NCBI GenBank assembly: GCA_041740515.1
Contig: JBGSLV010000043.1
Span: 27,594 to 91,593 of the forward strand
Source: Bdellovibrionales bacterium
GTDB taxonomy: Bacteria > Bdellovibrionota > Bdellovibrionia > Bdellovibrionales > UBA1609
DNA length: 64,000 nucleotides
Reading direction: 5' to 3'
Positions 22,078 to 64,000 of the stretch are shown in pieces. Position numbers and translations under genes: made by a program. Numbering within the stretch: position 1 is the stretch's first letter; every line of letters begins with the position of its first letter. The notes beneath the pieces are model-generated. The model was given only the letters and a program-made list of their open reading frames with translations, had not been told where the DNA came from and searched no databases.

Positions 22078-22413
22078 AATATCACCCTTTAAAAGATGCT
22101 AAAGGTTATCTTCGGCTAAAACAACATATGTATTAAAAAGGAATTTGCTTTCATTTTTGGAAGCATTACATCGATTATTAACGGTATTGAAGCAATTTAC
22201 TTAAAAATTTACGATAAATGAATTTAATTTTTTAGACTTAATGAAGTCATAACTCTGCCCTAATTCATAATCAGGCTTACAAGAACTACTTTTCTCTTCA
22301 CGTAAATTCATCGATCAGTTTGAGATCAAGAAGATTGAATTGAATTAAATTGGATTATTTTAATTTCTCATTCAAATATGCTGAACTGTCAAATCGGTAG
22401 TAATTCTACCAAC

Positions 22414-22923
22414 TTAATTTCCAGAGTTATTTTTAACGCTTGCTTTCCCGACATTAGCGCCCTCTGTGTATTGTAAATCAACATTATCAAATTGAAGTGT
22501 GAAATTTTCGGTTAAACGCTCTTCGCCACCCGATCCACCGCTTGCTACAGATGTGATCAGAACTTTATTCATTGTGAATTTTATGGTCATTGCATTTTCG
22601 ACTTCAAGAACAACTTTTGAAATTTTTGTTTTCTGGCTTAGTAATTTAATAATCTCAGCTGATTCTGGACCAACAAATTTAGTAAATGACATATCTTGAA
22701 CTTTTAAATCTCTTGATTGCTTTGATTCCGAATCTTCTGAAATATTACTAACTCCCCAACTCCAAGCTAAAATCTCGACTGGTTTTTGCAAATTGGTAAC
22801 ATTCATGGATTTGTCCGTTTCAAAAGAAAGTTTCATTTTTGTACCTCTTCGAGGTGAACTCTCTTGACCAGCTAATGTAAAACAAAAGGTAAAAGTAATA
22901 AGGAATATAAATATATTTTTCAT
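22414..22923 (-). CDS. Hcp-family (type VI secretion tube protein) homologue with an apparent N-terminal signal peptide
   Basis: Blocks VEILAWSWGVSN, LKVQDMSFTKF and ITSVASGGSGGEERLTENFTLQF match Hcp1 hallmark blocks as I recall them. MKNIFIFLITFTFCFTLAGQ precedes the Hcp core. Alternative leaderless start at 22836. Confidence 0.8.
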   Translation of the reverse strand: MKNIFIFLITFTFCFTLAGQESSPRRGTKMKLSFETDKSMNVTNLQKPVEILAWSWGVSNISEDSESKQSRDLKVQDMSFTKFVGPESAEIIKLLSQKTKISKVVLEVENAMTIKFTMNKVLITSVASGGSGGEERLTENFTLQFDNVDLQYTEGANVGKASVKNNSGN

Positions 22924-23112
22924 TTTGAAACCTCTGAAAGGATTTATATAATTTAATATTAAATATTTAACGTGAATTTAGGTTAATTATATCTAATTGA
23001 AGATTCAATAAAAAAAATTTATTTTTTTGGTGCATAGACTTTAAGATAGGTGAGACAACTTTAACTGATAACCCCATTCCATTTAAATTTTTTGATTCTT
23101 AAGTTAACGGCA

Positions 23113-24564
23113 TTACCAACGACAGCTGTTTATGTTATCCGCATTTGCAATAAAACTGTAATTATAAGTTTTATAAAAGAACCAACTTTTTTTAGGACCA
23201 AGGAATTGCTTTATATTCAAATTGGTCAATTTATGTATTTCACCACTTTCAGATTTTACAATAAGATTAAAATTTTGTAGCTTATCTAACTTACGTGCCC
23301 TTTCATAGGCAAGATCAAGTCCTGATTTAGTAATCCAGTCCGATGTTTGTCTAACTTCCGTAAAAATAGATTCGTCATAAGAGCTAAGTACTTGGTAAAG
23401 CTCGCTCTCGTATCCAAATAAATCAATTTTTTTCATAAAAAAATGATTATTGTAGGAACCCGCAAACTTAAGATTTGAGAACATGGTGAAGTTCCCTGCC
23501 GAACGATAGCCAAAATAGATAGAAGTGCTAAATAAACAAAGCAAAATTAATGGTCCTAATTTAAGAGTATCAATTGATGAAAAATTTAAATACCTTTCGA
23601 AAGAATGCCTTTTAATTATATGCTTACTACTCAAATAAATCAGATTCATCGTAATAACGATAAGGATTAATCCTTGTAAAGACTGCAAGGTCTGTTTGAT
23701 TTCTGGAAACACATAAGCACCTATCAAACTTATACCAATAAGGACATAAGAGCTTATAAAATGCAGATAAATAATTTTAATCCAAACATCGAAACTAGAA
23801 ATAACAAGAGGCAAAAATAGAAATAATAAAGCCATAGCCAATGATGAAAAGTCTGCAAACCCACCAAGGGCCAAATAGGAATGCAAAAAGAGCAACATAA
23901 GTAGACCATAGTTTCTATATCGTTTCATCAATAACAAGGTGGGTGCCAATAGTTCCAGTGCACCTACAATTTTGGGGGAAATACTTTTAATAAATACAGG
24001 TATATCATTTAAGTCGATATTATTAAAAAACCGACTAAAAAGCTTTAAGTGGTACCAAGTGGTGCAAGATTTATCAGGATTATAAAAATCAACATTCATT
24101 TTATGCAAAGCAGCGCTATAGTATAAAATGACCAATGCACTTAACAAAAAAATTTTATTTTCAAAAAGATTAAGGTAAATATTTTCATATTTTATAAAAT
24201 TCACAAAATAGAATACAAAAATTAAAAAAAGCAAAAATGTATTAAAATTAGTATGATTGGCCCCATAGGGCCAATGATTAATTATATGAAATAACAGTAA
24301 AGAACAGAAAAAAATAAATAATAGGTTGATATAAAAAAAGAATCTATTAGAACTCTCTATGTGACAGTTTTTTATGGCTTTAAAAAATCGATACGCCAAA
24401 TAATGAAAAGCTAAAAGAAAAACAAATAATACTTTCTCTGCATAGTCGTTTTGGAAGTACTCAAAAAAATGATAAACTTGTGCGGTAACGTAAGACAGAA
24501 TAAAGCCTAAGTCATAAATATTAGACTTTATTGGGATGGCTTTTCTGTTCAAACATAAAGTCAA
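23113..24564 (-). CDS. Polytopic membrane protein, possibly HTTM/VKGC-like, with a C-terminal soluble domain
   Basis: More than 8 hydrophobic spans. WPYGANHTNFNTFLLFLIF and AGNFTMFSNLKFAGSYNNHFF segments. The family call is weak. Confidence 0.4.
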   Translation of the reverse strand: MTLCLNRKAIPIKSNIYDLGFILSYVTAQVYHFFEYFQNDYAEKVLFVFLLAFHYLAYRFFKAIKNCHIESSNRFFFYINLLFIFFCSLLLFHIINHWPYGANHTNFNTFLLFLIFVFYFVNFIKYENIYLNLFENKIFLLSALVILYYSAALHKMNVDFYNPDKSCTTWYHLKLFSRFFNNIDLNDIPVFIKSISPKIVGALELLAPTLLLMKRYRNYGLLMLLFLHSYLALGGFADFSSLAMALLFLFLPLVISSFDVWIKIIYLHFISSYVLIGISLIGAYVFPEIKQTLQSLQGLILIVITMNLIYLSSKHIIKRHSFERYLNFSSIDTLKLGPLILLCLFSTSIYFGYRSAGNFTMFSNLKFAGSYNNHFFMKKIDLFGYESELYQVLSSYDESIFTEVRQTSDWITKSGLDLAYERARKLDKLQNFNLIVKSESGEIHKLTNLNIKQFLGPKKSWFFYKTYNYSFIANADNINSCRW

Positions 24565-24573
24565 TGTATGCCT

Positions 24574-24759
24574 TTAAAATAATTTTTTAAATAGTAAATA
24601 TTCAGACAAAGTATTATCTGCTTTCGACCAAGAATTTTGAATATCATTAGAAAAAGTAACTAGACCATAGTCAGGTTCCAATAAAAAACCTATAAACTCT
24701 TTAGCATTAGCTTTTAGCCCAATAATCAATATAAAAATAGAAAGCAAAGTCTTGAACAT
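24574..24759 (-). CDS. Small secreted protein (61 aa) ending 9 nt upstream of the 483-aa membrane protein gene
   Basis: Signal peptide MFKTLLSIFILIIGLKANA followed by about 40 residues. Tight spacing suggests co-transcription. Confidence 0.4.
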   Translation of the reverse strand: MFKTLLSIFILIIGLKANAKEFIGFLLEPDYGLVTFSNDIQNSWSKADNTLSEYLLFKKLF

Positions 24760-24960
24760 AAATAAATACTTTACGATATAAGTATATTTGTAAAGAACAA
24801 AACCTTAATTAATTCCCTATTTAAATTTATCAACTACTCCAAAAAAATTGGAACTAATTTTTTATAATTCCAATACTTGGTATATATCTTAACTTAAACT
24901 AAAAAACGCAAAAGCTAAAATGCTATTGTTATTTCTATCAATTACATCGAGGATAAATGT

Positions 24961-25377
24961 GTGCGAGCTCAACTTAATCATTTGTTTTTATTATTAATCC
25001 TAGCCCTCGGCTTGGCAGGACCCGTGTCAATGTTAATCTTTGAGTACAATCCCCTGTTTTTTATTTCTCCAGCGCCAAGTGTTTTTACCTATCAAAAAAA
25101 ATATCCCAATCAAATTGAATTTATAAGATATGCCTCAAATGGACCTTACGATAGTATTAAAATGAATCGTGATTTTTATAAAAAAATGATTGGACCACAT
25201 AGATATAAAGTGCTTTTTAATTCACTAATGAAACGTGGCGAAAGGCTAGTGCATTCCAAAAATTATAAAGTTTTTATAAAAAATTTTATCTGTAAACACA
25301 ATACTGATTTAACTTTGTTAAAAGTAGAAATTGTAAAAAACAAAAAAATCTTAAATGTGATCGATTGTCATGGATAA
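24961..25377 (+). CDS. Small membrane-anchored hypothetical protein (position suggests an SdpA-like partner)
   Basis: GTG start with GAGGA 7 nt upstream. One N-terminal hydrophobic span. Overlaps the next gene by 8 nt. Confidence 0.4.
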   Translation: MRAQLNHLFLLLILALGLAGPVSMLIFEYNPLFFISPAPSVFTYQKKYPNQIEFIRYASNGPYDSIKMNRDFYKKMIGPHRYKVLFNSLMKRGERLVHSKNYKVFIKNFICKHNTDLTLLKVEIVKNKKILNVIDCHG

Positions 25378-26188
25378 ACAACAAATTGAAATCAAAACTA
25401 TTCAAATCACTATAGTCTTTCTGGCTATCTACTACCTGTTATATTCTTTATATGAGCTACCTTTTGTCATTGATATGTACTCATGTGCAAGGCTTAATAT
25501 TTGTATTTATAGCGAATTAAACTTATCAAATTTCTATATATTTTTTTTTCAAGTTCTAAAAATTTTTTCCTCCCTGCTTCTCTTTAACAAAAAATTTTAT
25601 AAATTTGCTCTTTTTAATATTTTATCAACTAACATACTTTTTATGTTTGCAAATAAACTTTTACACTCCCCAGAGCAAGGCTACTTAAATTTTTTACTTC
25701 TTATACTTTTGTTATATAAGAATCCAAATAGTCCAGATCATGAATCTTCACCTCATCAAGTTTTTAATTTAAGGCTTACAAAGATTTATATTTTTGTTTT
25801 TTACTTAGCCTACAGTTTCTCTGGATTTACCAAATATCGAACTGACGCTTGGATGGATGGATCTTTTATGAATAATTTTTTTGCTCATAATCATTTGATT
25901 TATAATACCATTTTTTTAGAATTCCTTTCCACCGCTGTGAAAAGTGCCATGACCTATTTTACGGTTTTTATTGAGTTGTTTTCCTTTCTTGCAATTACTA
26001 ATCGCATTTTAGCCCTATTTTTTTGGCTAAATCTCACAATCATTCAAATTGGCCTAATTTTTTGGGCCGATTTATGGCAAGTAAATCTAGGTATGCTAAT
26101 CTGTCATTTTTTTGTTATGGATAATGGTCTTTTAATCGGTATAAAAAAACTTTTACATTCTCTTAAATTTAAAATCTTTAAAATATGA
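25370..26188 (+). CDS. Polytopic membrane protein, possibly SdpB/HTTM-like
   Basis: Several hydrophobic spans. The LHSPEQGYLNFLLLILLLYK segment resembles the HTTM core. Translationally coupled to the 138-aa gene. Confidence 0.4.
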   Translation: MDKQQIEIKTIQITIVFLAIYYLLYSLYELPFVIDMYSCARLNICIYSELNLSNFYIFFFQVLKIFSSLLLFNKKFYKFALFNILSTNILFMFANKLLHSPEQGYLNFLLLILLLYKNPNSPDHESSPHQVFNLRLTKIYIFVFYLAYSFSGFTKYRTDAWMDGSFMNNFFAHNHLIYNTIFLEFLSTAVKSAMTYFTVFIELFSFLAITNRILALFFWLNLTIIQIGLIFWADLWQVNLGMLICHFFVMDNGLLIGIKKLLHSLKFKIFKI

Positions 26189-26379
26189 ATTCTTTTAAAA
26201 ATTGAAAAGTTCCGATGTTTTAAAGATTCCGACTGATTTTCCAAATCAAATATGAATGAATGTTGTACTGCGGAGAGTTAAATACTTTGTTTTTATTTAT
26301 AATGTAATAGCCCCGTTGATGTTGATGTATATCTTTGGTAGCTTTTGTCTAAATAAATAAAATGTTAAGGGGAAATTTT

Positions 26380-27099
26380 ATGAAACAATCCATATTTAAG
26401 AACTATTTTATATTAATTTTAACTCTATTTTTCGTGAATTCATATGCCAACGCTAATTTTTTTCAGAATGCTGGCAGTAAGTATGATGTTCTTTTTGTTA
26501 TGGATGACTCCGCAGATATGACTACAATTAAATATAAAGAAGGGCTGACAACAGCCGTGAGCAAATTGATTGATTTAAATGTACATATTGGAATGATAAC
26601 TACAAGTGATTATGATCAAAGTTACCCAAGAGTTAAAAGAACGGTTTGGGAATTTATTCCTTACTCATCTGCTAGCGACAAAAGTCACACTGACAATGTT
26701 GTAGATTATTTGCTATCAGTTCCCTACAATGGGAGTGGTACAGAAAAATTTTTTCCAAACATAGTTGGGGCTTTTCAAAATTCTGATAGTTCTCTGTTTT
26801 TTAGACAAGATGCTACTTTAGTTATTTTTATTGTTTCAACAGCTGTCGACCAGAGTGAACTGTCATCACTAGATTTTTTAAAAAAACTTGAAGTCTATAA
26901 ATCTTTAACTCATGTTTACATTCGGGCTGCATTAACAGCGCCTCACGATGTTAATGATAACAATTGTAAAGGTGAAATTGACTCATCTAACCTAAGTTTT
27001 GTTCCAAAATTAAACGAACTTATGAATTACTCTAAAATTGATGTTAAAATGATTAGTTTATGTTCAAAAGATTGGAGTTCTTTAATCGATTTTAATTAA
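26380..27099 (+). CDS. Secreted hypothetical protein with a vWA-like layout
   Basis: Start at ATG 26380 (AAGGGGA upstream). Signal peptide. YDVLFVMDDSADM (MIDAS-like DxSxD), HIGMITT, GSGTEKF and ATLVIFIVSTAVD follow vWA strand order. Confidence 0.4.
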   Translation: MKQSIFKNYFILILTLFFVNSYANANFFQNAGSKYDVLFVMDDSADMTTIKYKEGLTTAVSKLIDLNVHIGMITTSDYDQSYPRVKRTVWEFIPYSSASDKSHTDNVVDYLLSVPYNGSGTEKFFPNIVGAFQNSDSSLFFRQDATLVIFIVSTAVDQSELSSLDFLKKLEVYKSLTHVYIRAALTAPHDVNDNNCKGEIDSSNLSFVPKLNELMNYSKIDVKMISLCSKDWSSLIDFN

Positions 27100-47576: not shown

Positions 47577-48710
47577 TTAAGGCAAATGACTGTACAAAGG
47601 CTTACCTAATTCATTTTTAGGGATTTCATCTATATAACAAAGTCCTGAAATTCGCTCATGAGCAGGACATTCAGAATTCCAGGTTTTAATCAATTTATTC
47701 AGATTTTTAATGGAGGAAGAAGTATAGGCTATAAGTCTATATCCACTTTTTAAATCAACTTTGGCTACAATTAAGTTGTGCGTTGGATCAATTTTGTTTT
47801 GCAAACAAAATGTGGTGAATCGAGATCTTAAACTTTCTAAATGAACTAAAGTTGAATTAATTTTGATAAAATCGTTAATTCGACCTAAAAAACTTTTAAG
47901 GGTTCGCCCCTGCAATTGCACTAAATCCTCGGTTGTAAAATAACCGCCCTCGTCTCTTGGGGATTGGGCAAATTTAACTTTATCATTTTTTATAATTAAA
48001 TACCCTTTATAGAGAGCTTGCCCTTTAATTTGCAATTGCTGCATCTCGTTTAATCGAATCTGCCAATGCGGCAAAGCTGTTTGAGTTGCATTTGATGGTT
48101 GTCTTTGTGAAAAAATTTGGGAACAGGCTTCAGAAGATCCAAAGGTTCTCAAAATAGGCCAACCTAAATTCAAGGCTTGGTTCATAAGCTCTACACTTAA
48201 ACCAGAGCCTCCGACAAAAACCACTCGTAAACATGTTGGTGCTTTTACTTTGGCTTGAACTATTTCATAGATCAATGAAGGCACTAAAGACGTAATCGTA
48301 ATCTTGTCCGCTTCTATTATTTCTAAAAATTTATTTAAAGACCATTGCTCTAAAATTACAGCCGGTGCGGCGCTAGCAAAAACGGATCTAGATAGCACAC
48401 TAAAGCCACCCATGTGAAAGATAGAGATAGGTGCTAAAAACTTATCTTTAGATTGAACATCGGTCCATTCGCTCACACTGTTCGCCGAGGTTTTTATGCT
48501 GTCAAAATCATGGAGTACAAATTTTTTGGAAGCCGTTGAGCCTGAGGTTTGAAATATAAAACCGTGGGTGACATGCTGTTTTGCTTCAAGGCAAAGTTTT
48601 GATAAATCTTCTTTGGTTAATTCTGTCGTTTTAAAAATACAAAAAATATCGTTTTCCAAATGATACAGATTTTTAATAAAACTATTTTTGAAATCGTCAA
48701 AACTGAGCAT
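47577..48710 (-). CDS. menE: o-Succinylbenzoate-CoA ligase (short AMP-binding enzyme)
   Basis: QTSGSTASKKFVLH, GYFTTEDLV, GRINDFIK and NELGKP motifs. Sits in the men cluster. Confidence 0.75.
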   Translation of the reverse strand: MLSFDDFKNSFIKNLYHLENDIFCIFKTTELTKEDLSKLCLEAKQHVTHGFIFQTSGSTASKKFVLHDFDSIKTSANSVSEWTDVQSKDKFLAPISIFHMGGFSVLSRSVFASAAPAVILEQWSLNKFLEIIEADKITITSLVPSLIYEIVQAKVKAPTCLRVVFVGGSGLSVELMNQALNLGWPILRTFGSSEACSQIFSQRQPSNATQTALPHWQIRLNEMQQLQIKGQALYKGYLIIKNDKVKFAQSPRDEGGYFTTEDLVQLQGRTLKSFLGRINDFIKINSTLVHLESLRSRFTTFCLQNKIDPTHNLIVAKVDLKSGYRLIAYTSSSIKNLNKLIKTWNSECPAHERISGLCYIDEIPKNELGKPLYSHLP

Positions 48711-49761
48711 CTAAGTCCCTTAAATAAATCCATTCAGCCCGAGCCAATTCTTTATCCAAACCCCAACCTCTAAGTTTGTCTTTTTCTTTTAAGTTTAAGA
48801 ATGAGGTTCGAACCTTGGGATCAAGCTCTTGCTTATTATGGGGTTTTAATGAACTTAAAGCATCAAATTCTTGAATGTCAGGAGTTCGAAAAAAATGTCT
48901 GGTGTAAAGACCTGCACCAAAAAATCGGCTCTTCCAATGGGTGAAAATATAGTTGGCCCAATGGGCGGCAATGATATGATCAAGTTCATCCCCCATATTT
49001 GTAGTAATTAGAAGTTTGGATTTGGGGAAAATCTGTAAAACCTCTTTGACTGATTCTTTAGTAGGTTTAACAGCAATAATATCAAATATTTCAGCAAGGG
49101 GCTTTAAGCGTTGATGAAATGTCATATTTTTTTGATCCAAAATCATTTGAAAACCAAGAGCTTTAAGGGCTGTAAGTTCATCGAGGTTTTGCATGTCAAT
49201 AGGATCTTCCCAATATGATCTTTGTAATACATCTCTGGGCCATTGAATTTTTTGGAAGTCTTTAAGCTGGGCGCATGAATTAAAGTCAAAAATAAATTCG
49301 CAACTCTCGTGAAGTTTTAAAAAATCAAAATACATTTGTTGATCTAAAAAAAAATTTAGATTCATTTTAAACTTTAATCTAGTAAAACCATTTCTATATA
49401 AACCAAAAGCTGTTTTTAGATCTTCTTCGGCAGTTAATTTTTTTTGTATGGTAGCCTGGGTTTTTAATTCGTGGCTTACAAAATCTAAAAAATATCTTTC
49501 CTTGGATTTAAGTAAATACTCTTCTTTAAAATTTTCTAGTAAAATAGAAGGTATGTTATTTTTTAACATTTCAATTTGATATTCGACCTCAGGATCACCT
49601 AAAGAAGTATGCAAGGTCATACTTGTATAAAGGTTTTCTTGCTTATAAACCCATTTGAAATCAAGACCTTGGATTGGCTTAACATAAGTGTCTTGGCCAT
49701 GCCTTGCATTTACAGCTGAATTAGGAAAAAGCGAAAAGGTTTTGTAATACAGTGAGCTCAA
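48697..49761 (-). CDS. menC: o-Succinylbenzoate synthase (enolase superfamily)
   Basis: KxK (RLKFKMN), DFN, YWEDPI, MILDQ and VKPT fall at the expected order of the catalytic strands. Sits in the men cluster. Confidence 0.65.
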   Translation of the reverse strand: MSSLYYKTFSLFPNSAVNARHGQDTYVKPIQGLDFKWVYKQENLYTSMTLHTSLGDPEVEYQIEMLKNNIPSILLENFKEEYLLKSKERYFLDFVSHELKTQATIQKKLTAEEDLKTAFGLYRNGFTRLKFKMNLNFFLDQQMYFDFLKLHESCEFIFDFNSCAQLKDFQKIQWPRDVLQRSYWEDPIDMQNLDELTALKALGFQMILDQKNMTFHQRLKPLAEIFDIIAVKPTKESVKEVLQIFPKSKLLITTNMGDELDHIIAAHWANYIFTHWKSRFFGAGLYTRHFFRTPDIQEFDALSSLKPHNKQELDPKVRTSFLNLKEKDKLRGWGLDKELARAEWIYLRDLDAQF

Positions 49762-49791
49762 AATTAAGTCCTATCAAATGGGTCAAAGACC

Positions 49792-50682
49792 TTATAAAGT
49801 TAAAAAGCCAATACACAAAGACAAACAATATCCAAAGTAAGTTAAACTGCTAAATTTTAAAATTTTATTGTATGCAAAACTGGGCGTATGGTTTCGAACC
49901 CAATTCCAGAAGTATAAACTAAATCCAAACCACGGAACACTCAGCCAAATAAATTCTATCTTAAAGAATTCTGTGGGCCAGAAGAAAGTGCCCCCAAACC
50001 CAATAAGAATTAATGCTAAATAATATACAATTCCAAACCGACGGCCCAATCTGACAATTAAGGTTTTTTTATTATTTTGGATATCTTGAAGTTGATCGCG
50101 AAGGTTGTTGACCACAAGTAAAACCGTACATAAACAACCTAATTGTAATCCTAATAAAAATGCAAATAGATTGCCATTTAAGGACAAAGTATAAACCGTT
50201 CCCCAAACTGCAAATCCACCAAAAAAAACGATCACAAAAAAATCCGCAGTTCCTGAATAGGCCAGGGACATTTTGGTACCAGTATATAGATATGATAATA
50301 ACAAACTTAAAACGCCTAAAATCACAAAAAGCCAACCTGTTTTTAAAACAATGGGGATACCTGCGATTAAAGCAATTCCACATAAAACTATGGCCCAGTT
50401 TCTTACTATCTCTGGTTTAACCAATTGGGCTGATGTGACGCGAAGGGGGCCTAAACGATCTGCTTTATCTCCACCTTTAAAAGTATCTAAATAATCATTA
50501 AAAAGATTGGTAGCAATTTGAATTGATAACCCGGAGATTAAGATAGGGAAAATATACCAAGTTTCTATGGACTCCACAGAATATTTTAACGCAAAAAAAT
50601 ACCCAACTAAAATTGGTCCTAAAATAGCTGTTAGTGTTTGTGGACGTGCCGCCAATATAAAATTTTTAAAAGCCATAATCAA
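49792..50682 (-). CDS. menA: 1,4-dihydroxy-2-naphthoate polyprenyltransferase
   Basis: UbiA-family motif NLFNDYLDTFKGGDK and about 8 TM spans. Confidence 0.85.
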   Translation of the reverse strand: MIMAFKNFILAARPQTLTAILGPILVGYFFALKYSVESIETWYIFPILISGLSIQIATNLFNDYLDTFKGGDKADRLGPLRVTSAQLVKPEIVRNWAIVLCGIALIAGIPIVLKTGWLFVILGVLSLLLSYLYTGTKMSLAYSGTADFFVIVFFGGFAVWGTVYTLSLNGNLFAFLLGLQLGCLCTVLLVVNNLRDQLQDIQNNKKTLIVRLGRRFGIVYYLALILIGFGGTFFWPTEFFKIEFIWLSVPWFGFSLYFWNWVRNHTPSFAYNKILKFSSLTYFGYCLSLCIGFLTL

Positions 50683-51436
50683 TTGTCCTCAAAATAAACT
50701 TAAAATCTTCACTTTCAATTAAGCGGTGACTTCGACCAGATAATACTTGCCCAATAAGGTTTGCATTTTTCAAATTCTGAAGTCGATGCATCTGGGTCAT
50801 ATATTTTTCGTCTTCTGATCCACAAAATACATAAAAGAAAAATCCCTTATCTAACAGCTTTGCTGGAATAAGACTTTGACTTTGATTTCGATTCCAAAAT
50901 TGAAAATAACACTTGATCTGATTTAGACTCCAATCGGTTAAAACAGGTTTGTCCTCTTTAAATAGAGTAAGCTCATTCCACTCTTTTAAGAACTGGTCCA
51001 GTTTAGCGTTTTCTAATACTTCTAAAAATTTATGATTCAAGGCTTTTCGATAATTAGTTTCAAGCTGAAATTCATCTTCACTTTGGTAAATACCAAAATG
51101 TGTCGAGATCCAAACAAATTTAGGTTTGATTTCAAAATGTTGCAAGATTCCGCTTTGATATAATGGGTCTAATATGTCGAATAAAACCTTACTACCCATA
51201 GAGTAACTAAAAAAAACGATCTCGTTTGCAAAATTTAGTTTGTTTAAAAATGCTAAAAGCTGCTTTTGTGTTCGGCTAAGCATGGACTCCCAACTTTCAA
51301 ATTTTTCTTCCGATAGTTCAGGCTTAGGTTTTAAATCTAGACTAAAAATTTCAAAACTACTTTGAAGGTCTTTAAAATCATGGCCAGACCCTAAAAATCC
51401 ATGGAAACATATTGCCGTTTTTTTGTTTAGCCTCAT
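50666..51436 (-). CDS. menH: SHCHC synthase (alpha/beta hydrolase)
   Basis: CFHGFLGSGHDF and nucleophile elbow YSMGS. Overlaps menD and menA. Confidence 0.7.
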   Translation of the reverse strand: MRLNKKTAICFHGFLGSGHDFKDLQSSFEIFSLDLKPKPELSEEKFESWESMLSRTQKQLLAFLNKLNFANEIVFFSYSMGSKVLFDILDPLYQSGILQHFEIKPKFVWISTHFGIYQSEDEFQLETNYRKALNHKFLEVLENAKLDQFLKEWNELTLFKEDKPVLTDWSLNQIKCYFQFWNRNQSQSLIPAKLLDKGFFFYVFCGSEDEKYMTQMHRLQNLKNANLIGQVLSGRSHRLIESEDFKFILRTIDYGF

Positions 51437-53010
51437 GTAAAGTCACACTCAATAATATTAGGCCAGGCGTTAGATGTCTTATATTGATTTTCCAACTCAT
51501 GAATGGATTGGATCGACAAATAACTCAAACCCCACATTTCAGCCCAAGAGGCAAACTTTACATCATGTTTATTTATAAATTTTGGATTTTTAAACATTTT
51601 TGCAAAAATTTGTCCTCCCTTGTTGTTAATAATAAATAATGTAAAATTGACTTTATCTAAATTTTTAACCCAATACCAAGCCGCTGCAAGATCATACATG
51701 GTGGTTAAATCTCCAAGGACGGCAATAGTCTTTTGATGTTTAGAATTATAGGCAAGCCCCAAAGCTGTTGATAGCTGACCATCGATGCCATTAAGTCCTC
51801 GACTGGCATAGACTTCATTAAACGTATTAGTTTTATCAGCATCCCAACTTCTAATAGGTAAACTGTTACCAAGATAAAAAACTGTTTCTGTTTCGGACCC
51901 AACAAAAGATTTGTTTTGGTTTAAATGCAGTTGCACAACTAATTGTTTGAGCTGTTTAAAAAAAACCTCTTCATGGGATAGATTGACTTCCAGTTGGTCT
52001 GAATGATTTTGTGTTAACTTCATATCATTTAAAATATTTATACCTTCTAAGTCAGAAAGAAATTGTGCAAACTGGTTTAGTTTAAACACTTCTCCAAAAG
52101 ATAACCCGGGTAAGGGCAATTCAGAAAAGTGAATTACTTTTTTAAAAGCTGCTATTTCAAAATCTCGCCAGACTCGATGAGTTGGAATTCCGCCAATACG
52201 AATCACCAAATCATATAAGGTCATTACTGACATTTTATTCAAATTTTTTGCATTGAGGTGACTAGGAAAAGCATCCATTTCACCGGTGGATTCAAAATAA
52301 TAATCCGCTTGTAATTTCTTGAGTTGACGAGCCCAGCTTAACTTTTGTTGTTTATTTAACCCTGAAAATATCAACAAAAGTTTAGGCGTTTTTTTAGTTT
52401 TTAAGTTGACCTCTGTCAGCTTAAAAATATTTTCTAAACTATATTCTAAAAATTTAAAATTGTAGGGGTTTAATAATTTCGAAAACTCGATTGTTTTATC
52501 TAAACCAGGTTCAAGCAACCAAGGTATGGTCGGAGCATCAAGAAGGGGTTCATCAAAAATACAATTGATATGTAATGGATATGATACTTTATTAGGATCA
52601 AAGGTTTCATCGACACTGGCACCAAGATGGGATAACAAAAAATCTTTTTGTTTCATAGTTTGTGGGGCCCCGCTTCCCCACATAATCTCTGGTCTATCGG
52701 CACTAATAACAATTAAGGGCCATCCCGAATAATGAGCTTCCAGCAAAGCCGAACATGTTTCAACAAATGCTGTTCCAGATGTTGTAAACACGGCCACGGG
52801 CTGCCCCTGTTTCATAGTCAACCCAAGAGCATAAAAACCCGCGGATCGTTCTTCGAAACCCCAGTGAATGGATATGTCCTGAGAGGTACAAGATTCAAGT
52901 GTATCCACAAAAGGGGCGTTTCGTCCTCCGGGACACATAACGAAATGACGAACACCAATTTCATATAGTTTCTGGATAAGCTTTTGTGCTCGAGATATAT
53001 TTGTTGTCAT
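51433..53010 (-). CDS. menD: SEPHCHC synthase (ThDP-dependent)
   Basis: VMCPGGRNAPF N-terminus, ThDP motif GDLTTMYDL...NNKGGQIF. Confidence 0.9.
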   Translation of the reverse strand: MTTNISRAQKLIQKLYEIGVRHFVMCPGGRNAPFVDTLESCTSQDISIHWGFEERSAGFYALGLTMKQGQPVAVFTTSGTAFVETCSALLEAHYSGWPLIVISADRPEIMWGSGAPQTMKQKDFLLSHLGASVDETFDPNKVSYPLHINCIFDEPLLDAPTIPWLLEPGLDKTIEFSKLLNPYNFKFLEYSLENIFKLTEVNLKTKKTPKLLLIFSGLNKQQKLSWARQLKKLQADYYFESTGEMDAFPSHLNAKNLNKMSVMTLYDLVIRIGGIPTHRVWRDFEIAAFKKVIHFSELPLPGLSFGEVFKLNQFAQFLSDLEGINILNDMKLTQNHSDQLEVNLSHEEVFFKQLKQLVVQLHLNQNKSFVGSETETVFYLGNSLPIRSWDADKTNTFNEVYASRGLNGIDGQLSTALGLAYNSKHQKTIAVLGDLTTMYDLAAAWYWVKNLDKVNFTLFIINNKGGQIFAKMFKNPKFINKHDVKFASWAEMWGLSYLSIQSIHELENQYKTSNAWPNIIECDFT

Positions 53011-54074
53011 TATAATCCTAATTTGGTCTTGGTACTTGCAAACTTTAACTTAAGCTCATTAACTTCGTTGGGATATTCACTAAGTGCTGTGATGCCTCCA
53101 CCAACATGAATATACAGATGTGACGTGTCCCAAAACAAACCTCTTAAACAAACCACAACACGACTTTCCTCAGCTGTTATTAGTCCAAAGGGAGCCCCGT
53201 ATGACCCACGTTCATGGACTTGTAAAAGGTTGCCAAAACGTTTCCAGTTTTCAGCAGGGAAGACGCCCACTGCGGCCGTCGGTGCCAGCCTAGTGATAAG
53301 CTTTGTAATATTTGTTGTTGTTGTAAACTCTAGTCTGGCGTGAAGATGTTTGATGGAACCATAAATTTTCTCTTGAACTTGACTCCACTTTAAATCCAGT
53401 CCTGCAAGCTTCGAAGTAATATCCTGAATTACCATTTGGTGCTCTTCTTTAAGTTTTACATCAAGTAGCATGTCAGTCTGATCAATAGCCGGTAAGGTTC
53501 CAGCTAAGGCCATGGTTTCATAGGTATTTCCCAACCCTTTGCTTTCAAATAAAATTTCAGGTGTCTGACCAATGAAGCCTGAGGTCTGATCCCACAAACC
53601 ATACAAAAATTGGTCCTTATTATAAAATTGTAATAGTTTCGCGAGAATGAAAGGTAGATATTTTTTATTGAAATCCTTGGGCTTAGTGGCTTTAAAACTA
53701 ATAAATGGCACTGCTTTTTTTAAGACCCCATTGGTAATAAAATTTTGAAACTGATCATAAGTTTGTTTATATAAATCCCAGTCTGCGCTCCATTCCAATG
53801 CCACTGTTTTTGAATTTGATTCCGATGTTAATAAAGACGCAGATGTTAATTCAGATACTGATTTAATAAAAGAGGCATCCGATGAATAATGGGTAGGGAC
53901 GAATCGATGATTAAGCTTTTTTAAATCATATGTTGGATTTAAAAAAAATGCCTCCGAGGCCTCAGAATTTTGCGAGTCGGTTTCAAGAAGCAACTTTAAA
54001 TTCTGTCCAAAATAAGTCTGACCACTGGGCATACTCATAACAGCGCCATTTAAAAAAAATTGTTCGGGACTCAT
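53010..54074 (-). CDS. menF: Isochorismate synthase (short form)
   Basis: Chorismate-binding C-terminal motifs GAPFG, CLRGLFW and HVGGGITALSEYPNEVNE. Confidence 0.8.
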   Translation of the reverse strand: MSPEQFFLNGAVMSMPSGQTYFGQNLKLLLETDSQNSEASEAFFLNPTYDLKKLNHRFVPTHYSSDASFIKSVSELTSASLLTSESNSKTVALEWSADWDLYKQTYDQFQNFITNGVLKKAVPFISFKATKPKDFNKKYLPFILAKLLQFYNKDQFLYGLWDQTSGFIGQTPEILFESKGLGNTYETMALAGTLPAIDQTDMLLDVKLKEEHQMVIQDITSKLAGLDLKWSQVQEKIYGSIKHLHARLEFTTTTNITKLITRLAPTAAVGVFPAENWKRFGNLLQVHERGSYGAPFGLITAEESRVVVCLRGLFWDTSHLYIHVGGGITALSEYPNEVNELKLKFASTKTKLGL

Positions 54075-54194
54075 TTAGTATTTATATCGGATTTTAGCTC
54101 AAATTGAACGATAAACTTGAAAATGAAACGCAAATCCACGAATTTATGAAGACAATTCTAGAATTTATAGCTAATTTCTTGCAAAAGGATATTT

Positions 54195-55010
54195 ATGAAC
54201 TCAGCCAATTCTTCAAGCACATATCAAACTGTAAAAAAATCTGAAGTCAAAATTTTAGATATTAACTTTAAAGATCAATTACAAGTTATAGCCGGACCAT
54301 GTTCCATTGAATCTCAAGATCAGTTTTACAAAATTGCTGAAAGCTTAAAAAAAATGGGCGTGGGTCTACTTCGAGGTGGACTTTACAAACTACGTACTCG
54401 ACCAGATACATTTCAAGGACATGGAAAAGTCGCTTACCCTTGGGCTGTAGAAGTAAAAAAACATTTAGGAATGGGATTTGTCAGTGAAATCACTGACCCT
54501 CGTCAAATCCAAGAGATGTCAGATGTGGTAGACTGCTTTCAAGTGGGCGCACGTAATATGTACAACTATGACCTGCTGAAAGAACTTGGAAGACAAAAAA
54601 TACCTGTTCTGTTAAAGCGAGCCTTCTCCGCCACTATTGACGAGTGGCTATATGCTTCTGAGTATTTAGAAAAAGGGGGAAATCAATCTGTCCTTTTGTG
54701 TGAACGTGGCATTCGAACTTTTGAAACAAAAACCAGAAATACTTTAGATGTTAACGCCATTTCATACGCCAAACAGTTTTGTAAATACCCTATTTTATCT
54801 GATCCTTCCCACGGCACAGGTCGTGCGGATTTAGTGGAACAAGCATCGCTTGCATCTATTGCGGCCGGTGCAGACGGATTACTTATTGAAGTGCACAACG
54901 ATCCTAATCAAGCTCTCTCTGACAAAGACCAAGCTTTGGATCTTAATCAATTTAAAATTGTCTTTGATAAAAGCCAAAAACTTTATAATTTTTTAAAAAC
55001 TGTAAATTAG
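54195..55010 (+). CDS. 3-deoxy-7-phosphoheptulonate (DAHP) synthase, type I-beta
   Basis: VIAGPCSIES, LLKRAF, CERGIRTFE and SDPSHGTGR motifs. Confidence 0.85.
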   Translation: MNSANSSSTYQTVKKSEVKILDINFKDQLQVIAGPCSIESQDQFYKIAESLKKMGVGLLRGGLYKLRTRPDTFQGHGKVAYPWAVEVKKHLGMGFVSEITDPRQIQEMSDVVDCFQVGARNMYNYDLLKELGRQKIPVLLKRAFSATIDEWLYASEYLEKGGNQSVLLCERGIRTFETKTRNTLDVNAISYAKQFCKYPILSDPSHGTGRADLVEQASLASIAAGADGLLIEVHNDPNQALSDKDQALDLNQFKIVFDKSQKLYNFLKTVN

Positions 55011-55043
55011 TATTTCGGTTTAGAGTTTTTAATAGGATTTATT

Positions 55044-55748
55044 ATGAAAGGACCTGAAGCTGAAAAAATACAGAATCTTTTTTCAGAGATCGCTAAAAGC
55101 TATGATACGGCTAATGATGCTATAACTTTTGGTATGGCCCGTTCTTGGCGACGTCAACTTGTACGTTGGAGTGAGGCGAAAGCCAATGATCAGATTTTAG
55201 ATATTGCCACTGGAACTGGTGATTTGGCTTTTGATTTTTTAAATCTAACATCCAATAAAGCGCAAGTGATTGGGGTTGATTTTTGCGAACCCATGCTTGA
55301 GGTTGCCAGAGACAAAGCCAAAAATAAAAACCTAAAAATTGATTTCTTTTGGGGTGATGCCTGCGATTTAAAATATAAAAATGAATCGTTTGATATTGTT
55401 AGCATTTCATATGGTATTAGAAACGTCGAAAATTTAACCCAAGCCATCCAAGAGATGCATAGAATTTTAAAACCAGGGGGTCGCCTGATGATCCTAGAGA
55501 CTGGGTCTAAAGGCTCTGGAATATTGAGCCCACTTATTGGTATCTATTCTAATTATATTATGCCTTTTGTGGGCGGTCTTATCTCTGGAAAAAAATCTGC
55601 TTACAATTATTTAGGAACATCATCGTCTGAATTTCCATCAGGCCAAAAACTAATCGACCAAATGCAAAAAGCTGCACCATTTAAAACGGCAAATTACAAA
55701 AAAATCCTTGGTGGTGCTAGTTTTATTTATAAGCTGATTAAAGCATAA
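55044..55748 (+). CDS. ubiE: Demethylmenaquinone/ubiquinone methyltransferase
   Basis: YDTANDAITFGMARSWRR and ILDIATGTGDLA SAM motif; LKPGGRLMILE. Confidence 0.85.
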   Translation: MKGPEAEKIQNLFSEIAKSYDTANDAITFGMARSWRRQLVRWSEAKANDQILDIATGTGDLAFDFLNLTSNKAQVIGVDFCEPMLEVARDKAKNKNLKIDFFWGDACDLKYKNESFDIVSISYGIRNVENLTQAIQEMHRILKPGGRLMILETGSKGSGILSPLIGIYSNYIMPFVGGLISGKKSAYNYLGTSSSEFPSGQKLIDQMQKAAPFKTANYKKILGGASFIYKLIKA

Positions 55749-55956: not shown

Positions 55957-58314
55957 TTATTTACAAAAATTTGTTTTTGGATAGTAGTTTTCAGGTACAC
56001 ATCCTTCATTTTGAAGCGTACACATGACTCTGACGTGATAGTGATCATGGTGCCCAGCCCAGTTTCTCATGAATCTTTCAACTATTTCTCTGTGGGATTG
56101 TAGTTTATTATTATCTTTAAGATATTTACAAAATCTTTTGCGAATACGATTGTCAGTAAACAACACTTGAACTCGATCTGTATAAACAAGAAGGCGAGCT
56201 TGATCAAAGGCAGCCACGACTCTACTTGAATTTAAATTTGCCGCGAAGTTATCAAAGCCTCGAGTTGAATTATTAATATGAGGATAAGACACATCGACAT
56301 CTAAGCCGTTTTGATGGGATGCATGCTCTCCTAATTGGCCCCCATTTTTGTAGGACAAACTGTTAATTTGATTCATTAAATTTTCACCATATCTTTGCTT
56401 TAAGACACAGCCCACAAATTCTAAGACATGCTTGGTGACATCAGACCCAAACTGTCTTGAAGTATGATCAGGTGAGTGAAAGATAGTTTCATGAACTGAG
56501 TCCTTATAATTGGTCGCATTTTTTAATCTGCCAGAATTATAATGGCCGCGTGCCTGATTATAATTTAAGTTTTTAGCTCTGATTATGTGAGTTCCACAAA
56601 GCGACAAATCATAAGTGAATTGCCCATCTATGCTTTCAAAAGGCACCACCGCCTGAGACTCCACAGTTTTTTGCTCTTCTTTTTCCTCTTCCGGCCCTTT
56701 TAAATCATCGGGTCGCTTTCTTGGTCTTGTCGGCGGCTTCACATTTTGGGCTGTCGTTGGGGCTAAAGTTTCCGTATGAGCATTAGGTGCTGTTGGAGTG
56801 GATGAATCAGTTATCGGTGGGTTTGTTTGTGGAGTCGGTGGATTAACTTTTTGCGCTTGAAGTCGGATGATAAACTGATGGTAGTCACTAGTATCATAAT
56901 TTTTGGCATTTGGGTTTGGAAGCACATCGAGATTTGGTTCAGATTGTCTTGGACTCTCTGGTACAAGAATAACTTCTTCGGGGGGGAAAACCTCTTCGTT
57001 GATGACATCAACCAGTTCAACAGGCTCTTCCGGAATCATTGTCACAACCAAGCCAGGGGGGCGGGATTTGGGACGTTTAGTTGGTTTGGACTCCTTAATT
57101 AGTTCTGGTGGGCGGGCTTTGGGGCGTCGAGAAGATGGATTTTGCTTTTCAAACTCAGGAGGGCGGGCTTTGGGGCGTTTTGAAGTTGGTGGGTTGTTAG
57201 ATAGTCCCTCAGGTCTTGCTTTTGGTTTTATACGAGACGTAGTTGCTTGGGGTGATTGCTCTTCAAGACCATCATCAGTTTGTATTACTCCCTCGTTAAT
57301 CTGTGGCTGTTGACCGACCTGTTGGGGTTCATCGGACTCAAGCTGCACGACTTCTATTTCGGGGACGACATCTTTTGATGTTGCCGCTTTAGGTCGTTCA
57401 AGAGTTGGGTCTAGTAAGTACTTTGGACACGGAGTTCCCTTAGGAACCAAACCTTCACATAAAGAATCCATATTTTCGGGTCTAAGCAAAGGGGCCCCGA
57501 TTTTTAAAGCTTCGGGATCATCACCTTCATCAGGAGTGTAAGTATCTTGGTGGAGACCAGTTTGATCATCCTCAATCACCTCTTTAATAATGGGTTCCAT
57601 GACTGATAATGTGGTTTTATTTGGTAAAGTATTTTCTAAGGTAATTTCAGATTCGCGCTGATCAATCATAAAAGGTCTAGAATCTATAAAACTCTCACCT
57701 TTTGCATTCACGTTAGCAAACGAAGCTACCAAAGTAATGTCCTGGCAATCAGGAATATCGTAGCAATGTACGATTGCATTTACGATCTCAGAAGATTCAG
57801 ATGAAGTTCTTTTAAGTTTTAAATAAGTTCGTTGACGAGTTTTTTGATAATCATCTTTGTATGACTTAAGATCACCCACAAATTCATACTTGTAATCTTT
57901 AAATTCAGACGTGTTGTTCTCGGCAAGCCGTAAATAAAGTATGACATACATCTCTAGTTTTAAAGAATTATACATGACCGAAGGGTTTACTACTGTCCTT
58001 GCTTTGATATTAAGCCATGGAGTCAGCTCGTTTACCTTTAGATTCTCTTTACTTGTAGATACTGGTGTTGAGGTGGGGTTAGTTATTATGGGTTCCCTTT
58101 TGATCTCTTCATTTTGTGTGCAGTCTGATGGATCTTGGTCCCCGGCCAAAAATGCGCAATCGTATCGTCTGAGTCGAACCTCTCTTAAACCATTTTCAGC
58201 ATTGACCATTTCTGGCAATTTAATGATTTTAGCATCATTATTTAAGGAACAAGCGACAAAATTTGTCACCCAAAGTATCGCCAAAATGAATTTAGAGGTT
58301 ACGCGCAATTTCAC
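55957..58314 (-). CDS. Large lipoprotein with a Pro/basic repeat linker and a C-terminal MepA-like (peptidase M74, LAS-type) murein endopeptidase domain
   Basis: Lipobox NFVACS. C-terminal motifs EHASHQNGLDVDVSYP and WAGHHDHYHVRVMC match MepA zinc-ligand blocks. Confidence 0.7.
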   Translation of the reverse strand: MKLRVTSKFILAILWVTNFVACSLNNDAKIIKLPEMVNAENGLREVRLRRYDCAFLAGDQDPSDCTQNEEIKREPIITNPTSTPVSTSKENLKVNELTPWLNIKARTVVNPSVMYNSLKLEMYVILYLRLAENNTSEFKDYKYEFVGDLKSYKDDYQKTRQRTYLKLKRTSSESSEIVNAIVHCYDIPDCQDITLVASFANVNAKGESFIDSRPFMIDQRESEITLENTLPNKTTLSVMEPIIKEVIEDDQTGLHQDTYTPDEGDDPEALKIGAPLLRPENMDSLCEGLVPKGTPCPKYLLDPTLERPKAATSKDVVPEIEVVQLESDEPQQVGQQPQINEGVIQTDDGLEEQSPQATTSRIKPKARPEGLSNNPPTSKRPKARPPEFEKQNPSSRRPKARPPELIKESKPTKRPKSRPPGLVVTMIPEEPVELVDVINEEVFPPEEVILVPESPRQSEPNLDVLPNPNAKNYDTSDYHQFIIRLQAQKVNPPTPQTNPPITDSSTPTAPNAHTETLAPTTAQNVKPPTRPRKRPDDLKGPEEEKEEQKTVESQAVVPFESIDGQFTYDLSLCGTHIIRAKNLNYNQARGHYNSGRLKNATNYKDSVHETIFHSPDHTSRQFGSDVTKHVLEFVGCVLKQRYGENLMNQINSLSYKNGGQLGEHASHQNGLDVDVSYPHINNSTRGFDNFAANLNSSRVVAAFDQARLLVYTDRVQVLFTDNRIRKRFCKYLKDNNKLQSHREIVERFMRNWAGHHDHYHVRVMCTLQNEGCVPENYYPKTNFCK
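57050..57235 (-). repeat. In-frame tandem 51-bp (17-codon) repeats encoding RPKARPPExxKxxxxxx
   Basis: The GCGGG core recurs at 57061, 57112 and 57163 (spacing 51), plus a degenerate fourth unit. The protein reads KPKARPEG..RPKARPPEFEKQNPSSR RPKARPPELIKESKPTK RPKSRPPGL. Confidence 0.8.
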
Positions 58315-58341
58315 GCAGTGTACTAGGCAATATTCAGACCA

Positions 58342-58423
58342 CCTTAGGTGCCAGGTTCCGCACTCAGGTCACAGCGCATTATACCTTGGGTGCCAGGTTC
58401 CGCATTCAGGCAACAGTGCATTA
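58342..58423 (-). repeat. Two tandem ~40-nt GC-rich repeat units (left arm)
   Basis: Units at 58342-58381 and 58384-58423: CCTTAGGTGCCAGGTTCCGCACTCAGGTCACAGCGCATTA and CCTTGGGTGCCAGGTTCCGCATTCAGGCAACAGTGCATTA. Confidence 0.9.
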
Positions 58424-58644
58424 TTTTTTAATATCGATTACTCATATGGGTTCATATGTTTCGACAATCTAATTTTTCAACTAAATAAATTTCAAATAGT
58501 TTTTCGACCAATAATATATAAATTTATATAGTTTATATTTTATATTCCAGTTCGCATATTAGGTGGTGCGACCATATCCTGTAACAAGGCAGCTATGAGA
58601 TAACGAATATGCGATCCGTTCTGAGGTCGAACCCAGGCCACGAA

Positions 58645-58723
58645 TAATGCAGTGTTGCCTGTATGCGGAACCTGGCACCTAAGGTGATGCGGTGTGACCT
58701 GAGTGCGGAACCTGGCACCTAAG
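58645..58723 (+). repeat. Two tandem ~40-nt GC-rich repeat units (right arm, inverted relative to the left arm)
   Basis: Units at 58645-58684 and 58685-58723. The inner unit pairs with the inner left unit and the outer with the outer left unit, giving nested complementarity. Confidence 0.9.
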
Positions 58724-59452
58724 TTTAAGGAGGGTGGCACTTAAGATGATGAGGATAAGACTAATCCAAGTGGAAATGGTGAATCCAAAAATGAGTTCGC
58801 CCCGAGAGTCATCTCGTAGAGTCTCCATTACAATTCGGCCTACACCATGTAATAGCAACCAGGTAAAAAATAGTGCACCTTTACCGGCTTTCATAAAATT
58901 AAGTTTTTTTTCTAATAGAAGTAAAAGTAGCCAAACACCAATTTCATAGACAACGGCATAGAGTTGTGTGGGATGTCGAAGACCGTGCAAATGTGGAAAT
59001 TTAAAGCCCCAAAAAACATCAGTTTCAGCACCATAACAGCAACCATTAAAAAAACATGCTAAACGACCTAGGCCATAACTTAAAGCAGCTACTGGTGCAG
59101 ATACATCCAACCATAAAAAAATATTTTGTTTTTTAAGTTTCAAAAACAATATTCCTGCAAAAACACTAGCTAAAAAACCGCCGTAATATACAAAGCCACC
59201 GTTCCAAACATAAAAAATTTGTTTTAAATTTTGCACATAAAATTCAGGCTCTTGGTATAAAACATAGAAAAGTCTTGCCCCGATAAAACCAAATACCATT
59301 AAAACAAACAGAAGATCAGCTGCGATGGAGGGCTTTAATGGAAATTTTTTGAGACGATAAAAATAGTATTGAATACCAATACAATAAACGATCGCAAGTG
59401 TTACGAAGTACACTGAAATTTTAAAATTTTGAAATTCAATAAAAGGAAACAA
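58679..59452 (-). CDS. lgt: Prolipoprotein diacylglyceryl transferase
   Basis: FGFIGARLFYV, GGFVYYGG and GRLACFFNGCCYG motifs. The last ~14 codons (LRCQVPHSGHTASP) and the stop lie inside repeat units. Confidence 0.85.
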   Translation of the reverse strand: MFPFIEFQNFKISVYFVTLAIVYCIGIQYYFYRLKKFPLKPSIAADLLFVLMVFGFIGARLFYVLYQEPEFYVQNLKQIFYVWNGGFVYYGGFLASVFAGILFLKLKKQNIFLWLDVSAPVAALSYGLGRLACFFNGCCYGAETDVFWGFKFPHLHGLRHPTQLYAVVYEIGVWLLLLLLEKKLNFMKAGKGALFFTWLLLHGVGRIVMETLRDDSRGELIFGFTISTWISLILIILSATLLKLRCQVPHSGHTASP

Positions 59453-63506: not shown

Positions 63507-64000
63507 TTAGTCTAAGGTGGTTTTAATACCCTGAGCGTCAATCCCATACTTTTCGATTTTACGTAACAAGGTCTTTTTGGGAATGTTCGAGTTCAAAGCT
63601 GTTTGGTTGATTTTACCTTTGTTAGCCCTCAAAGCTTCAATAATAAAGCGTTTTTCAAACTCGTCTTTTTGTTTTTGAAAATCCATATCTTCAATTTCAA
63701 TTTTTATGGATTTAATTTCCACCAAATCTAAACTTTCTTCATTTTTATCCGAACTTGTTAGTACCGATTTTTGATCTAATTCCAGATTTCCCAAACTTTT
63801 GCTGACTTCATAAAGCGAATTTGGTTCGTCATTTTTCTTTAGTGTTACTTGAGCCGCTTTTAGAATTTTCTCAGGCAAGTGCTGAAGTAATATTTCTGGA
63901 CCATCATTTAATATAAAAGCGTGTTCAATCACGTTTTCAAGCTCTCGGATATTTCCAGGCCAGTTGTAGGATCTTAAACATTGTAAGGCCTGAGGGTTAA
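63507..64000 (-). CDS. Sigma-54-dependent Fis-family transcriptional activator, C-terminal part (5' end outside the window)
   Basis: The reading frame continues upstream of the annotated Met to the window edge as NPQALQCLRSYNWPGNIRELENVIEHAF. C-terminal Fis-type HTH: IIEALRANKGKINQTALNSNIPKKTLLRKIEKYGI. Confidence 0.8.
   Translation of the reverse strand, partial: NPQALQCLRSYNWPGNIRELENVIEHAFILNDGPEILLQHLPEKILKAAQVTLKKNDEPNSLYEVSKSLGNLELDQKSVLTSSDKNEESLDLVEIKSIKIEIEDMDFQKQKDEFEKRFIIEALRANKGKINQTALNSNIPKKTLLRKIEKYGIDAQGIKTTLD

Follow-up and report, generated by a model that had tools for sequence, protein, structure and literature searches.

Repeat units that encode the end of lgt suggest a lineage-specific small-repeat family in a Bdellovibrionales bacterium

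The window analyzed here is a 64,000-nucleotide stretch of DNA from a Bdellovibrionales bacterium that carries, in order, ileS-lspA-lgt, a composite of short GC-rich repeats, and a gene for a peptidase of the M74 family. The last gene of the first group, lgt (58679 to 59452, minus strand), was recognized by its Pfam LGT match, and the M74 gene (55957 to 58314, also on the minus strand), which encodes a putative lipoprotein, was recognized by Pfam. The original prediction had placed four units of about 40 nucleotides between these genes, two of them in tandem and two inverted, and a repeat search recovered all four. On the right, both on the minus strand, are the outer unit U1 (GTGACC subtype; 58687 to 58726) and the inner unit U2 (GTTGCC subtype; 58645 to 58686). 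On the left, both on the plus strand, are the inner unit U3 (GTTGCC subtype; 58383 to 58424), which runs opposite to U2 with 93% complementarity, and the outer unit U4 (GTGACC subtype; 58341 to 58382), which is 97% complementary to U1. The two members of the left direct doublet (58341 to 58382 and 58383 to 58424), also recovered by TRF with a period of 42, are 88% identical in the repeat search, and those of the right direct doublet on the opposite strand (58647 to 58686 and 58687 to 58726) are 83% identical. A solo unit predicted 58 kb away was likewise confirmed (U5; 478 to 518, minus strand), and it matches U4 at 34 of 35 positions despite this distance.

The 15-mer GCGGAACCTGGCACC has five exact occurrences in the window and, with up to three mismatches allowed, six matches against 0.26 expected, and a 14-nucleotide block is invariant in all six unit copies. 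The palindrome CACCTAAGGTG at the unit ends was considered as a dimer-binding site and rejected, being present in only two of the six copies. Similarly, the TGGCAC of the unit was rejected as a sigma-54 −24 box, given that TTGC does not follow at the required spacing in any copy. The window contains no tRNA or tmRNA gene, and therefore no att site derived from a tRNA fragment. Other features of the window include three consecutive genes for FHA-domain proteins (526, 318, and 631 amino acids; 4630 to 9062) beside a T2SS-F-like gene, and, downstream of the M74 gene, a menaquinone-type biosynthesis cluster (47577 to 55748) with chorismate-binding, TPP enzyme, UbiA, AMP-binding, and UbiE-like genes that is syntenic with relatives. 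A stretch from 20000 to 26500, which includes an Hcp (type VI secretion) gene at 22414 to 22923 and several ORFs without a Pfam match, has a low GC content (0.27 to 0.31 versus about 0.35 elsewhere) and may be an acquired region.

The outer inverted pair spans 37 nucleotides at 97% complementarity and the inner pair 43 nucleotides at 93%, with one and three mismatches, respectively, plus a 2-nucleotide indel, and 217 nucleotides separate the arms. It had been proposed that the arms pair over about 80 bp in mirror order, with RNA folding suggested as a check, and the predicted folds bear this out with a paired arm length of about 85 nucleotides and RNA z values of −13 to −15. Specifically, the 406-nucleotide region folds at −194.8 kcal/mol on the plus strand (z = −15.4) and at −187.5 kcal/mol on the minus strand (z = −13.4), and the composite folded as DNA gives z = −16. 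According to these models, a near-perfect stem of about 85 bp can form in RNA or in single-stranded DNA. The single units are non-palindromic, and ten folds of them gave z values from −1.0 to +0.9, no better than shuffles. One candidate 5-bp stem within the unit (GGUGC/GCRYU) is 93% paired, only via one-sided transitions, and a second is 70% paired, no better than shuffles; the unit alignment yielded no covariation support for a unit structure. Rfam 15 produced no gathering-level match in the window, and at E values up to 10 only noise was recovered, the best hit scoring 18.8 bits against a cut-off of 100. Note that the window also holds an unrelated intergenic nested palindrome at 20615 to 20735 (minus strand; −40.8 kcal/mol, z = −6.0; no Rfam match), and the point where the two long Logan contigs from this sample join, about 20.7 kb, falls inside it.

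Between the arms, the original prediction described a 221-nucleotide core with an AT-rich half and a GC-richer half. The two halves are indeed present (GC of 0.20 at 58424 to 58550 and 0.49 at 58551 to 58644), but the core does not hold up as a single module, in that its GC-rich half appears to consist of two decayed units. A whole-window repeat search located these at 58609 to 58643 and at 58561 to 58595, both on the minus strand in the orientation of U1 and U2 and adjoining U2, with start-to-start spacings of 48 and 38 nucleotides to the next unit. Each is identical to U1 and to U5 at 22 of 35 positions, and no other non-unit stretch on either strand of the window matches the U1, U4, and U5 references better. 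When the 96-nucleotide GC-rich segment was shuffled, 22 of 35 was reached in 2 of 5000 shuffles and was reached twice without overlap in 0 of 5000. The call is based on this ungapped, in-register test, and gapped local alignments compared with shuffles are weaker (z of about 3 and 1.5). We interpret the right side as a direct tandem array of four units, two of them decayed, in which identity drops with distance from lgt from intact to 80 to 86%, then 63%, and again 63%. The composite is asymmetric: its right side has four units, the two decayed ones included, and its left side has two.

Truly different DNA within the composite amounts to only about 126 to 136 nucleotides, an AT-rich spacer (58425 to 58560, no strand assigned; GC of about 0.2) that resembles nothing in any collection searched and contains no IHF-like site. 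A fold of the core alone is not significant (z = −1.3). The expectation that the core lacks a believable ORF was upheld, as was the assessment that its sigma-70-like match is at chance level, with four promoter-like hexamer sites found and 3.9 expected. An origin of the core as a remnant of the intergenic DNA or genes of relatives was rejected, because local alignments scored no better than shuffles and tblastn found nothing.

The Pfam LGT match stops at residue 242 of the 257 residues of Lgt, and the remaining tail is encoded by the units. Residues 244 to 256 (LRCQVPHSGHTAS), which correspond to the last 13 codons before residue 257, are encoded by U1, and residue 257 and the TAG stop codon (58681 to 58679) derive from the terminal CCTTAGG of U2, such that the last 14 lgt codons and the stop codon fall within the two right units. 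The composite had been described as lying between lgt and the M74 gene, ending just short of the latter; both neighbors are supported by Pfam and the distance of about 27 nucleotides to the M74 start codon stands, but the element is not fully intergenic because it overlaps lgt. At the other locus, the end of U5 is the TAG stop codon (514 to 512) of a DivIVA gene (512 to 1015), and U5 has the same orientation relative to divIVA as U1 has relative to lgt. With lgt of a relative described below, three gene 3′ ends carry a unit at a fixed position and in one fixed orientation, and at each of them the unit runs into or supplies the stop codon.

The M74 gene begins with a GTG codon at 58314, a start supported by N-terminal alignment with relatives, and the 27 nucleotides between this codon and the composite are conserved with relatives. 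The known sigma-54 consensus is TGGCAC-N5-TTGC in a −24/−12 layout. A predicted sigma-54-dependent promoter for the M74 gene, TGGTCTGAATATTGCC (58326 to 58341, minus strand), has the corresponding GG-N10-GC arrangement and is conserved in orthologues; rpoN itself was not among the genes seen. The extended pattern TGGyCy-N5-TTGCC-N11-GTGAAA is present in five orthologue sets, and sites with the promoter include 58312 to 58341 of the window (minus strand), 4507 to 4538 of contig L026, and contigs L027, L031, and L033; GG and TTGCC alone are invariant, N5 is variable, and the window site is the sole match to the pattern on either strand of the window. Moreover, the 3′ part of a gene for an NtrC-type sigma-54 activator (Sigma54_activat, AAA_lid_14, and HTH_8 domains) is present at 63507 to 64000 on the minus strand, where it runs off the end of the window. 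The GC of the promoter is 12 nucleotides before the GTG and no Shine-Dalgarno sequence is present, consistent with a sigma-54-dependent M74 transcript that, in this lineage, would be leaderless or nearly so.

U4 abuts the −24 element, and the last base or two of the composite overlap the T of the promoter TGG. The original prediction had assigned the composite to the 5′ UTR or promoter of the M74 gene. This was not borne out, because the conserved sigma-54-type promoter occupies the 27-nucleotide gap and thereby places the composite upstream of about −27. The composite instead constitutes the 3′ end of lgt together with its 3′ UTR. Regarding the M74 protein itself, the database copy (P0121, 750 amino acids) begins 35 codons after the GTG (58209 to 58314), and the GTG start yields a conserved signal peptide and Cys residue. 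The public annotation probably cuts the protein short at its start, as probably do those in L031 and L037. Farther into the gene, 51-nucleotide tandem repeats at 57053 to 57189 encode a proline-rich and basic RPKARPPE-like region in the middle of the protein.

Comparison of Lgt homologues places the organism among uncultured Bdellovibrionota/Oligoflexia-like bacteria, its nearest homologues being 66 to 69% identical. One of these proteins (P0002, encoded on JGI contig L029) ends in RCQVPNPGHTAS, and its gene holds a solo variant unit, AAGGTGCCAGGTTCCGAATCCTGGTCACACAGCATCA, at the same lgt codon and in the same frame, with 31 of 36 positions identical to U1. The 60 nucleotides of L029 lgt before the unit, and everything after it, have diverged from the window. 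Likewise, third codon positions are 43% identical between the two organisms in the body of lgt versus 9 of 12 in the unit. The same repeat-encoded tail is carried by P0135, a near-identical cluster mate of P0002 from a 93-kb JGI contig. In an Lgt tree, the window organism and the L029 organism are not clearly sisters, and the shared unit could reflect inheritance with losses or two site-specific insertions.

The original prediction had proposed that the region downstream of lgt be compared among related strains. Relatives carry genes in this interval without any unit, and L029 carries the solo unit described above. In six relative contigs, the interval between lgt and the M74 gene holds two to four genes, mostly on the opposite strand. 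L027, L028, L033, and L037 have opposite-strand DUF7843/Lnb_N and DUF3015 genes there, with further ORFs in some, and the L026 interval has a 151-amino-acid ORF and a DUF6973 gene. In L031 and L032, DUF3015 is directly upstream of M74, and these loci end short of lgt. The contig of another relative (P0003) stops 16 nucleotides after lgt and is uninformative. Neither these interval genes nor remnants of them were found in the window, and the M74-bearing contigs of relatives have neither units nor similarity to the core. Because the lgt-M74 genes of relatives are missing here, the composite marks the junction of a 2- to 4-kb deletion or rearrangement. In L029, the region downstream of lgt (2407 to 3129) encodes a homologue of Mrr-type restriction endonucleases rather than M74, and synteny breaks directly after the unit in both unit-bearing genomes.

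Logan contigs from SRR28170465 are 100% identical to the window and extend it by 9.5 kb on the left and 0.4 kb on the right, with no further unit in either flank. Approximately 74 kb of this genome was thus read, and it contains two unit loci. One 32-kb Logan contig passes uninterrupted through U5, and because of this, no other locus shares a 31-mer with U5 and exact copies of the unit are not abundant. A second copy of the core was not found in the window or in the additional 9.5-kb flank. An exact-pattern scan with CCTGNNNGCGGAACCTGGCACC of GTDB representatives and JGI metagenomes returned only chance matches in high-GC contigs, a negative result that is weakened because the pattern is too strict for the L029 variant. 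A scan of viral contigs with a pattern fitting both unit variants gave no matches, a blastn comparison of the composite with plasmids and phages gave none, and peptide queries covering every reading frame of the unit found no match at E values up to 10. A full-text literature search with unit sequence strings found unrelated primers only, and we are aware of no small-repeat family reported from these bacteria. The unit family appears to be private to an uncultured Bdellovibrionota-like lineage. The prediction that the unit is a dispersed repeat holds for two loci in this genome and for a variant in another organism, but its assignment to the MITE or REPIN class does not. Two loci give the term "interspersed repeat family" thin support.

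Among known repeats, the Rickettsia palindromic elements, reportedly described by Ogata et al. in 2000 as palindromes of 100 to 150 nucleotides inserted in-frame inside genes, are similar in that the host ORF reads through the repeat and repeat-encoded residues appear in a conserved protein. They differ in that the 40-nucleotide unit here replaces only a C-terminal tail and supplies the stop codon. REP sequences and REPINs are defined by tens to hundreds of copies per genome and a cognate RAYT gene. The present units resemble these RAYT-mobilized repeats in being short, GC-rich, extragenic, and lineage specific, and in occurring as singlets and, in part, as inverted doublets that could form hairpins. 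Unlike REPs, however, they have no palindromic core, their doublets are direct tandems inverted as a block, and the stretch read here contains two loci and no RAYT gene. The spacer is also larger, at 217 nucleotides versus 34 to 110 bp in the REPINs of P. fluorescens SBW25 (PMC3116915, PMC3337134). REP singlets may be old and vertically inherited (Bertels & Rainey; PMC3116915, PMC3337134).

Pneumococcal BOX elements and E. coli BIMEs are, like the composite, mosaics of sub-units with variable tandem modules of about 40 to 45 nucleotides, and their terminal modules can pair in intergenic, cotranscribed positions (PMC3049150, PMC2229807). There is no sequence similarity to either, however, and the present units extend into the 3′ ends of coding sequences. 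In BIMEs, successive units switch orientation, whereas two direct blocks face each other in the composite (PMC2229807). Neisseria Correia elements (PMC2649163) and prokaryotic MITEs (PMC10969869) are likewise small inverted-repeat elements beside genes, and their hairpin transcripts can be RNase III substrates and alter the expression of neighbors (PMC2649163, PMC10969869). Correia elements are further marked by a TA duplication, an IHF site, a conserved core, and a copy number in the hundreds (PMC2649163), and the composite showed none of these four features.

We hold with modest confidence that the units belong to a non-palindromic, GC-rich, REP/BOX-like, lineage-specific interspersed repeat family with units of about 37 to 42 nucleotides, a fairly ordinary one that has built up locally at lgt. 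In this reconstruction, whose order of events is only that, a first unit at the lgt stop codon would have multiplied into four direct tandem copies, of which the two most distant from lgt would have decayed later, and an inverted duplicate of the outer doublet would then have arisen beside the M74 promoter. A single recent inverted-copy event is suggested because the subtypes are mirror-ordered and the arms are 93 to 97% identical, and this event may coincide with the loss of the lgt-M74 genes, commonly DUF7843 and DUF3015. Local build-up fits better than a ready-made insertion because a relative has a solo unit at the same lgt codon.

Read-through transcripts from ileS-lspA-lgt would be expected to form a long double-stranded stem, a kind of structure that RNase III typically cleaves and that blocks 3′ exonucleases. 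The stem would then separate the lgt-operon mRNA from M74, whose transcription would start at its own sigma-54 promoter and yield a message with little or no leader. In this respect the composite would act in the manner of REP, BOX, BIME, and Correia-type repeats (PMC3116915, PMC3337134, PMC3049150, PMC2649163, PMC2229807). Most probably it is selfish or neutral DNA that happens to have these side effects, rather than a dedicated regulator.

Two other readings of the composite have some support, and we regard each as unlikely. By the first, the segment from 58343 to 58723 is a true MITE that transposed as a whole, with terminal inverted repeats of about 85 nucleotides that present two transposase-binding units per end. 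The element has the long terminal inverted repeats (37 to 43 nucleotides per unit, about 85 in total) with mirror-ordered subtypes, the small size (about 385 nucleotides by our delimitation, under 400 in any case), the absence of an ORF, and the dispersal of its unit in the genome that this would require. However, the ends of the inverted repeats lack a target-site duplication: the flanks read GACCAC on one side and TTTAAG on the other, without a direct repeat of any length. No repeat of the core was found in the window, its flank, relatives, plasmids, or phages, a provisional result that extends to the viral, GTDB-representative, and JGI collections searched. In addition, the two extra decayed units are on one side only, and the outermost unit has a counterpart in the solo unit at the same lgt codon in a relative. 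A search for a mobilizing transposase, another check proposed in the original prediction, was also negative: among window ORFs of at least 120 amino acids, none has a Pfam match to a transposase, recombinase, or integrase, RAYT/IS200-like and Y1 types included. The MITE label is thus not supported, given the lack of a duplication, the uniqueness of the core in the searched collections, the asymmetry, and the lack of a transposase in the window. The REPIN-like label is not supported either, given the non-palindromic single units, the 217-nucleotide separation, and the absence of a RAYT/IS200-like gene in the window. For the REPIN layout of two inverted units around a short spacer the picture is mixed, in that inverted pairing is strong while both arms consist of direct doublets and decayed units lie within the spacer.

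By the second reading, the unit is a selected cis-element, a 3′-end RNA or DNA motif such as a protein-binding site, whose inverted copy serves as a regulatory stem or as an enhancer platform for the nearby NtrC-type activator of the M74 sigma-54 promoter. In favor of selection, two organisms with 69% identity between their Lgt proteins both retain a unit where lgt ends, with its third codon positions conserved, a 14-nucleotide block is invariant in six of six copies, and the orientation to the gene is common to all three solo or outer cases. Moreover, the composite spans about −27 to −410 relative to the sigma-54 promoter, the usual zone for activator sites, and a gene for a sigma-54 activator is nearby. 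Nevertheless, this promoter occurs in five other relatives that lack units altogether, units are also present at loci without a sigma-54 promoter (divIVA and L029), the inner units are visibly decaying, and neither covariation for a unit structure nor an IHF-like site was found. A specific form of this idea, which we consider rather doubtful, is that a 37-nucleotide unit is a selected 3′-end element of envelope and division genes (lgt and divIVA) and that the 85-bp stem, created by the inverted copy beside the sigma-54 promoter, couples or insulates lgt-operon read-through and M74 expression, through RNase III or as a binding platform for the neighboring NtrC-type activator. If true, constraint at the nucleotide level would have preserved the unit at the end of lgt while the organisms diverged to the level of genera.

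Quite improbable, in our estimation, is an origin as scars of integrative elements at the 3′ end of lgt, wherein each integration replaces the 3′ end and pushes older att copies outward. This would explain why unit identity drops with distance from lgt, why two organisms have an lgt tail re-encoded by the unit, and why the gene after lgt differs between the two unit-bearing genomes (Mrr-like in L029, M74 here), but the units follow one another in tandem without intervening island DNA, the window encodes no integrase, the left doublet is inverted rather than direct, and the divIVA unit has no partner.

We give very little credence to an invertible, phase-variable segment, in which recombination between the arms flips the AT-rich segment upstream of a surface-protein gene: inverted repeats do flank such a segment just upstream of the putative lipoprotein gene, but no window ORF has a recombinase domain, promoter matches in the segment are at chance level, the conserved M74 promoter is outside the invertible part, invertase sites are usually far shorter than these arms, and single units occur elsewhere. 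An assembly artefact that joined lgt and M74 through a shared repeat is equally hard to credit: relatives have genes between the two, the lgt- and M74-bearing Logan contigs terminate inside the outer units (at 58697 and 58372), and the inner 324 nucleotides were not recovered from this second assembly, but the imperfect arms and asymmetric array are unlike a perfect-hairpin artefact, U2 and U3 share no 31-mer so that the inner path should be unique, and the contigs end as predicted by the single 31-mer that U1 shares with inverted U4.

The preferred reading, a REP/BOX-like family with local build-up, would add a new small-repeat family in a poorly studied lineage and no new class of system. 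It also suggests caution in that what looks like a neat MITE may be a decaying tandem array combined with an inverted duplication at a deletion junction. For the organism itself, the consequence is that a repeat has rewritten the C terminus and the stop codon of Lgt, an essential enzyme of lipoprotein maturation.
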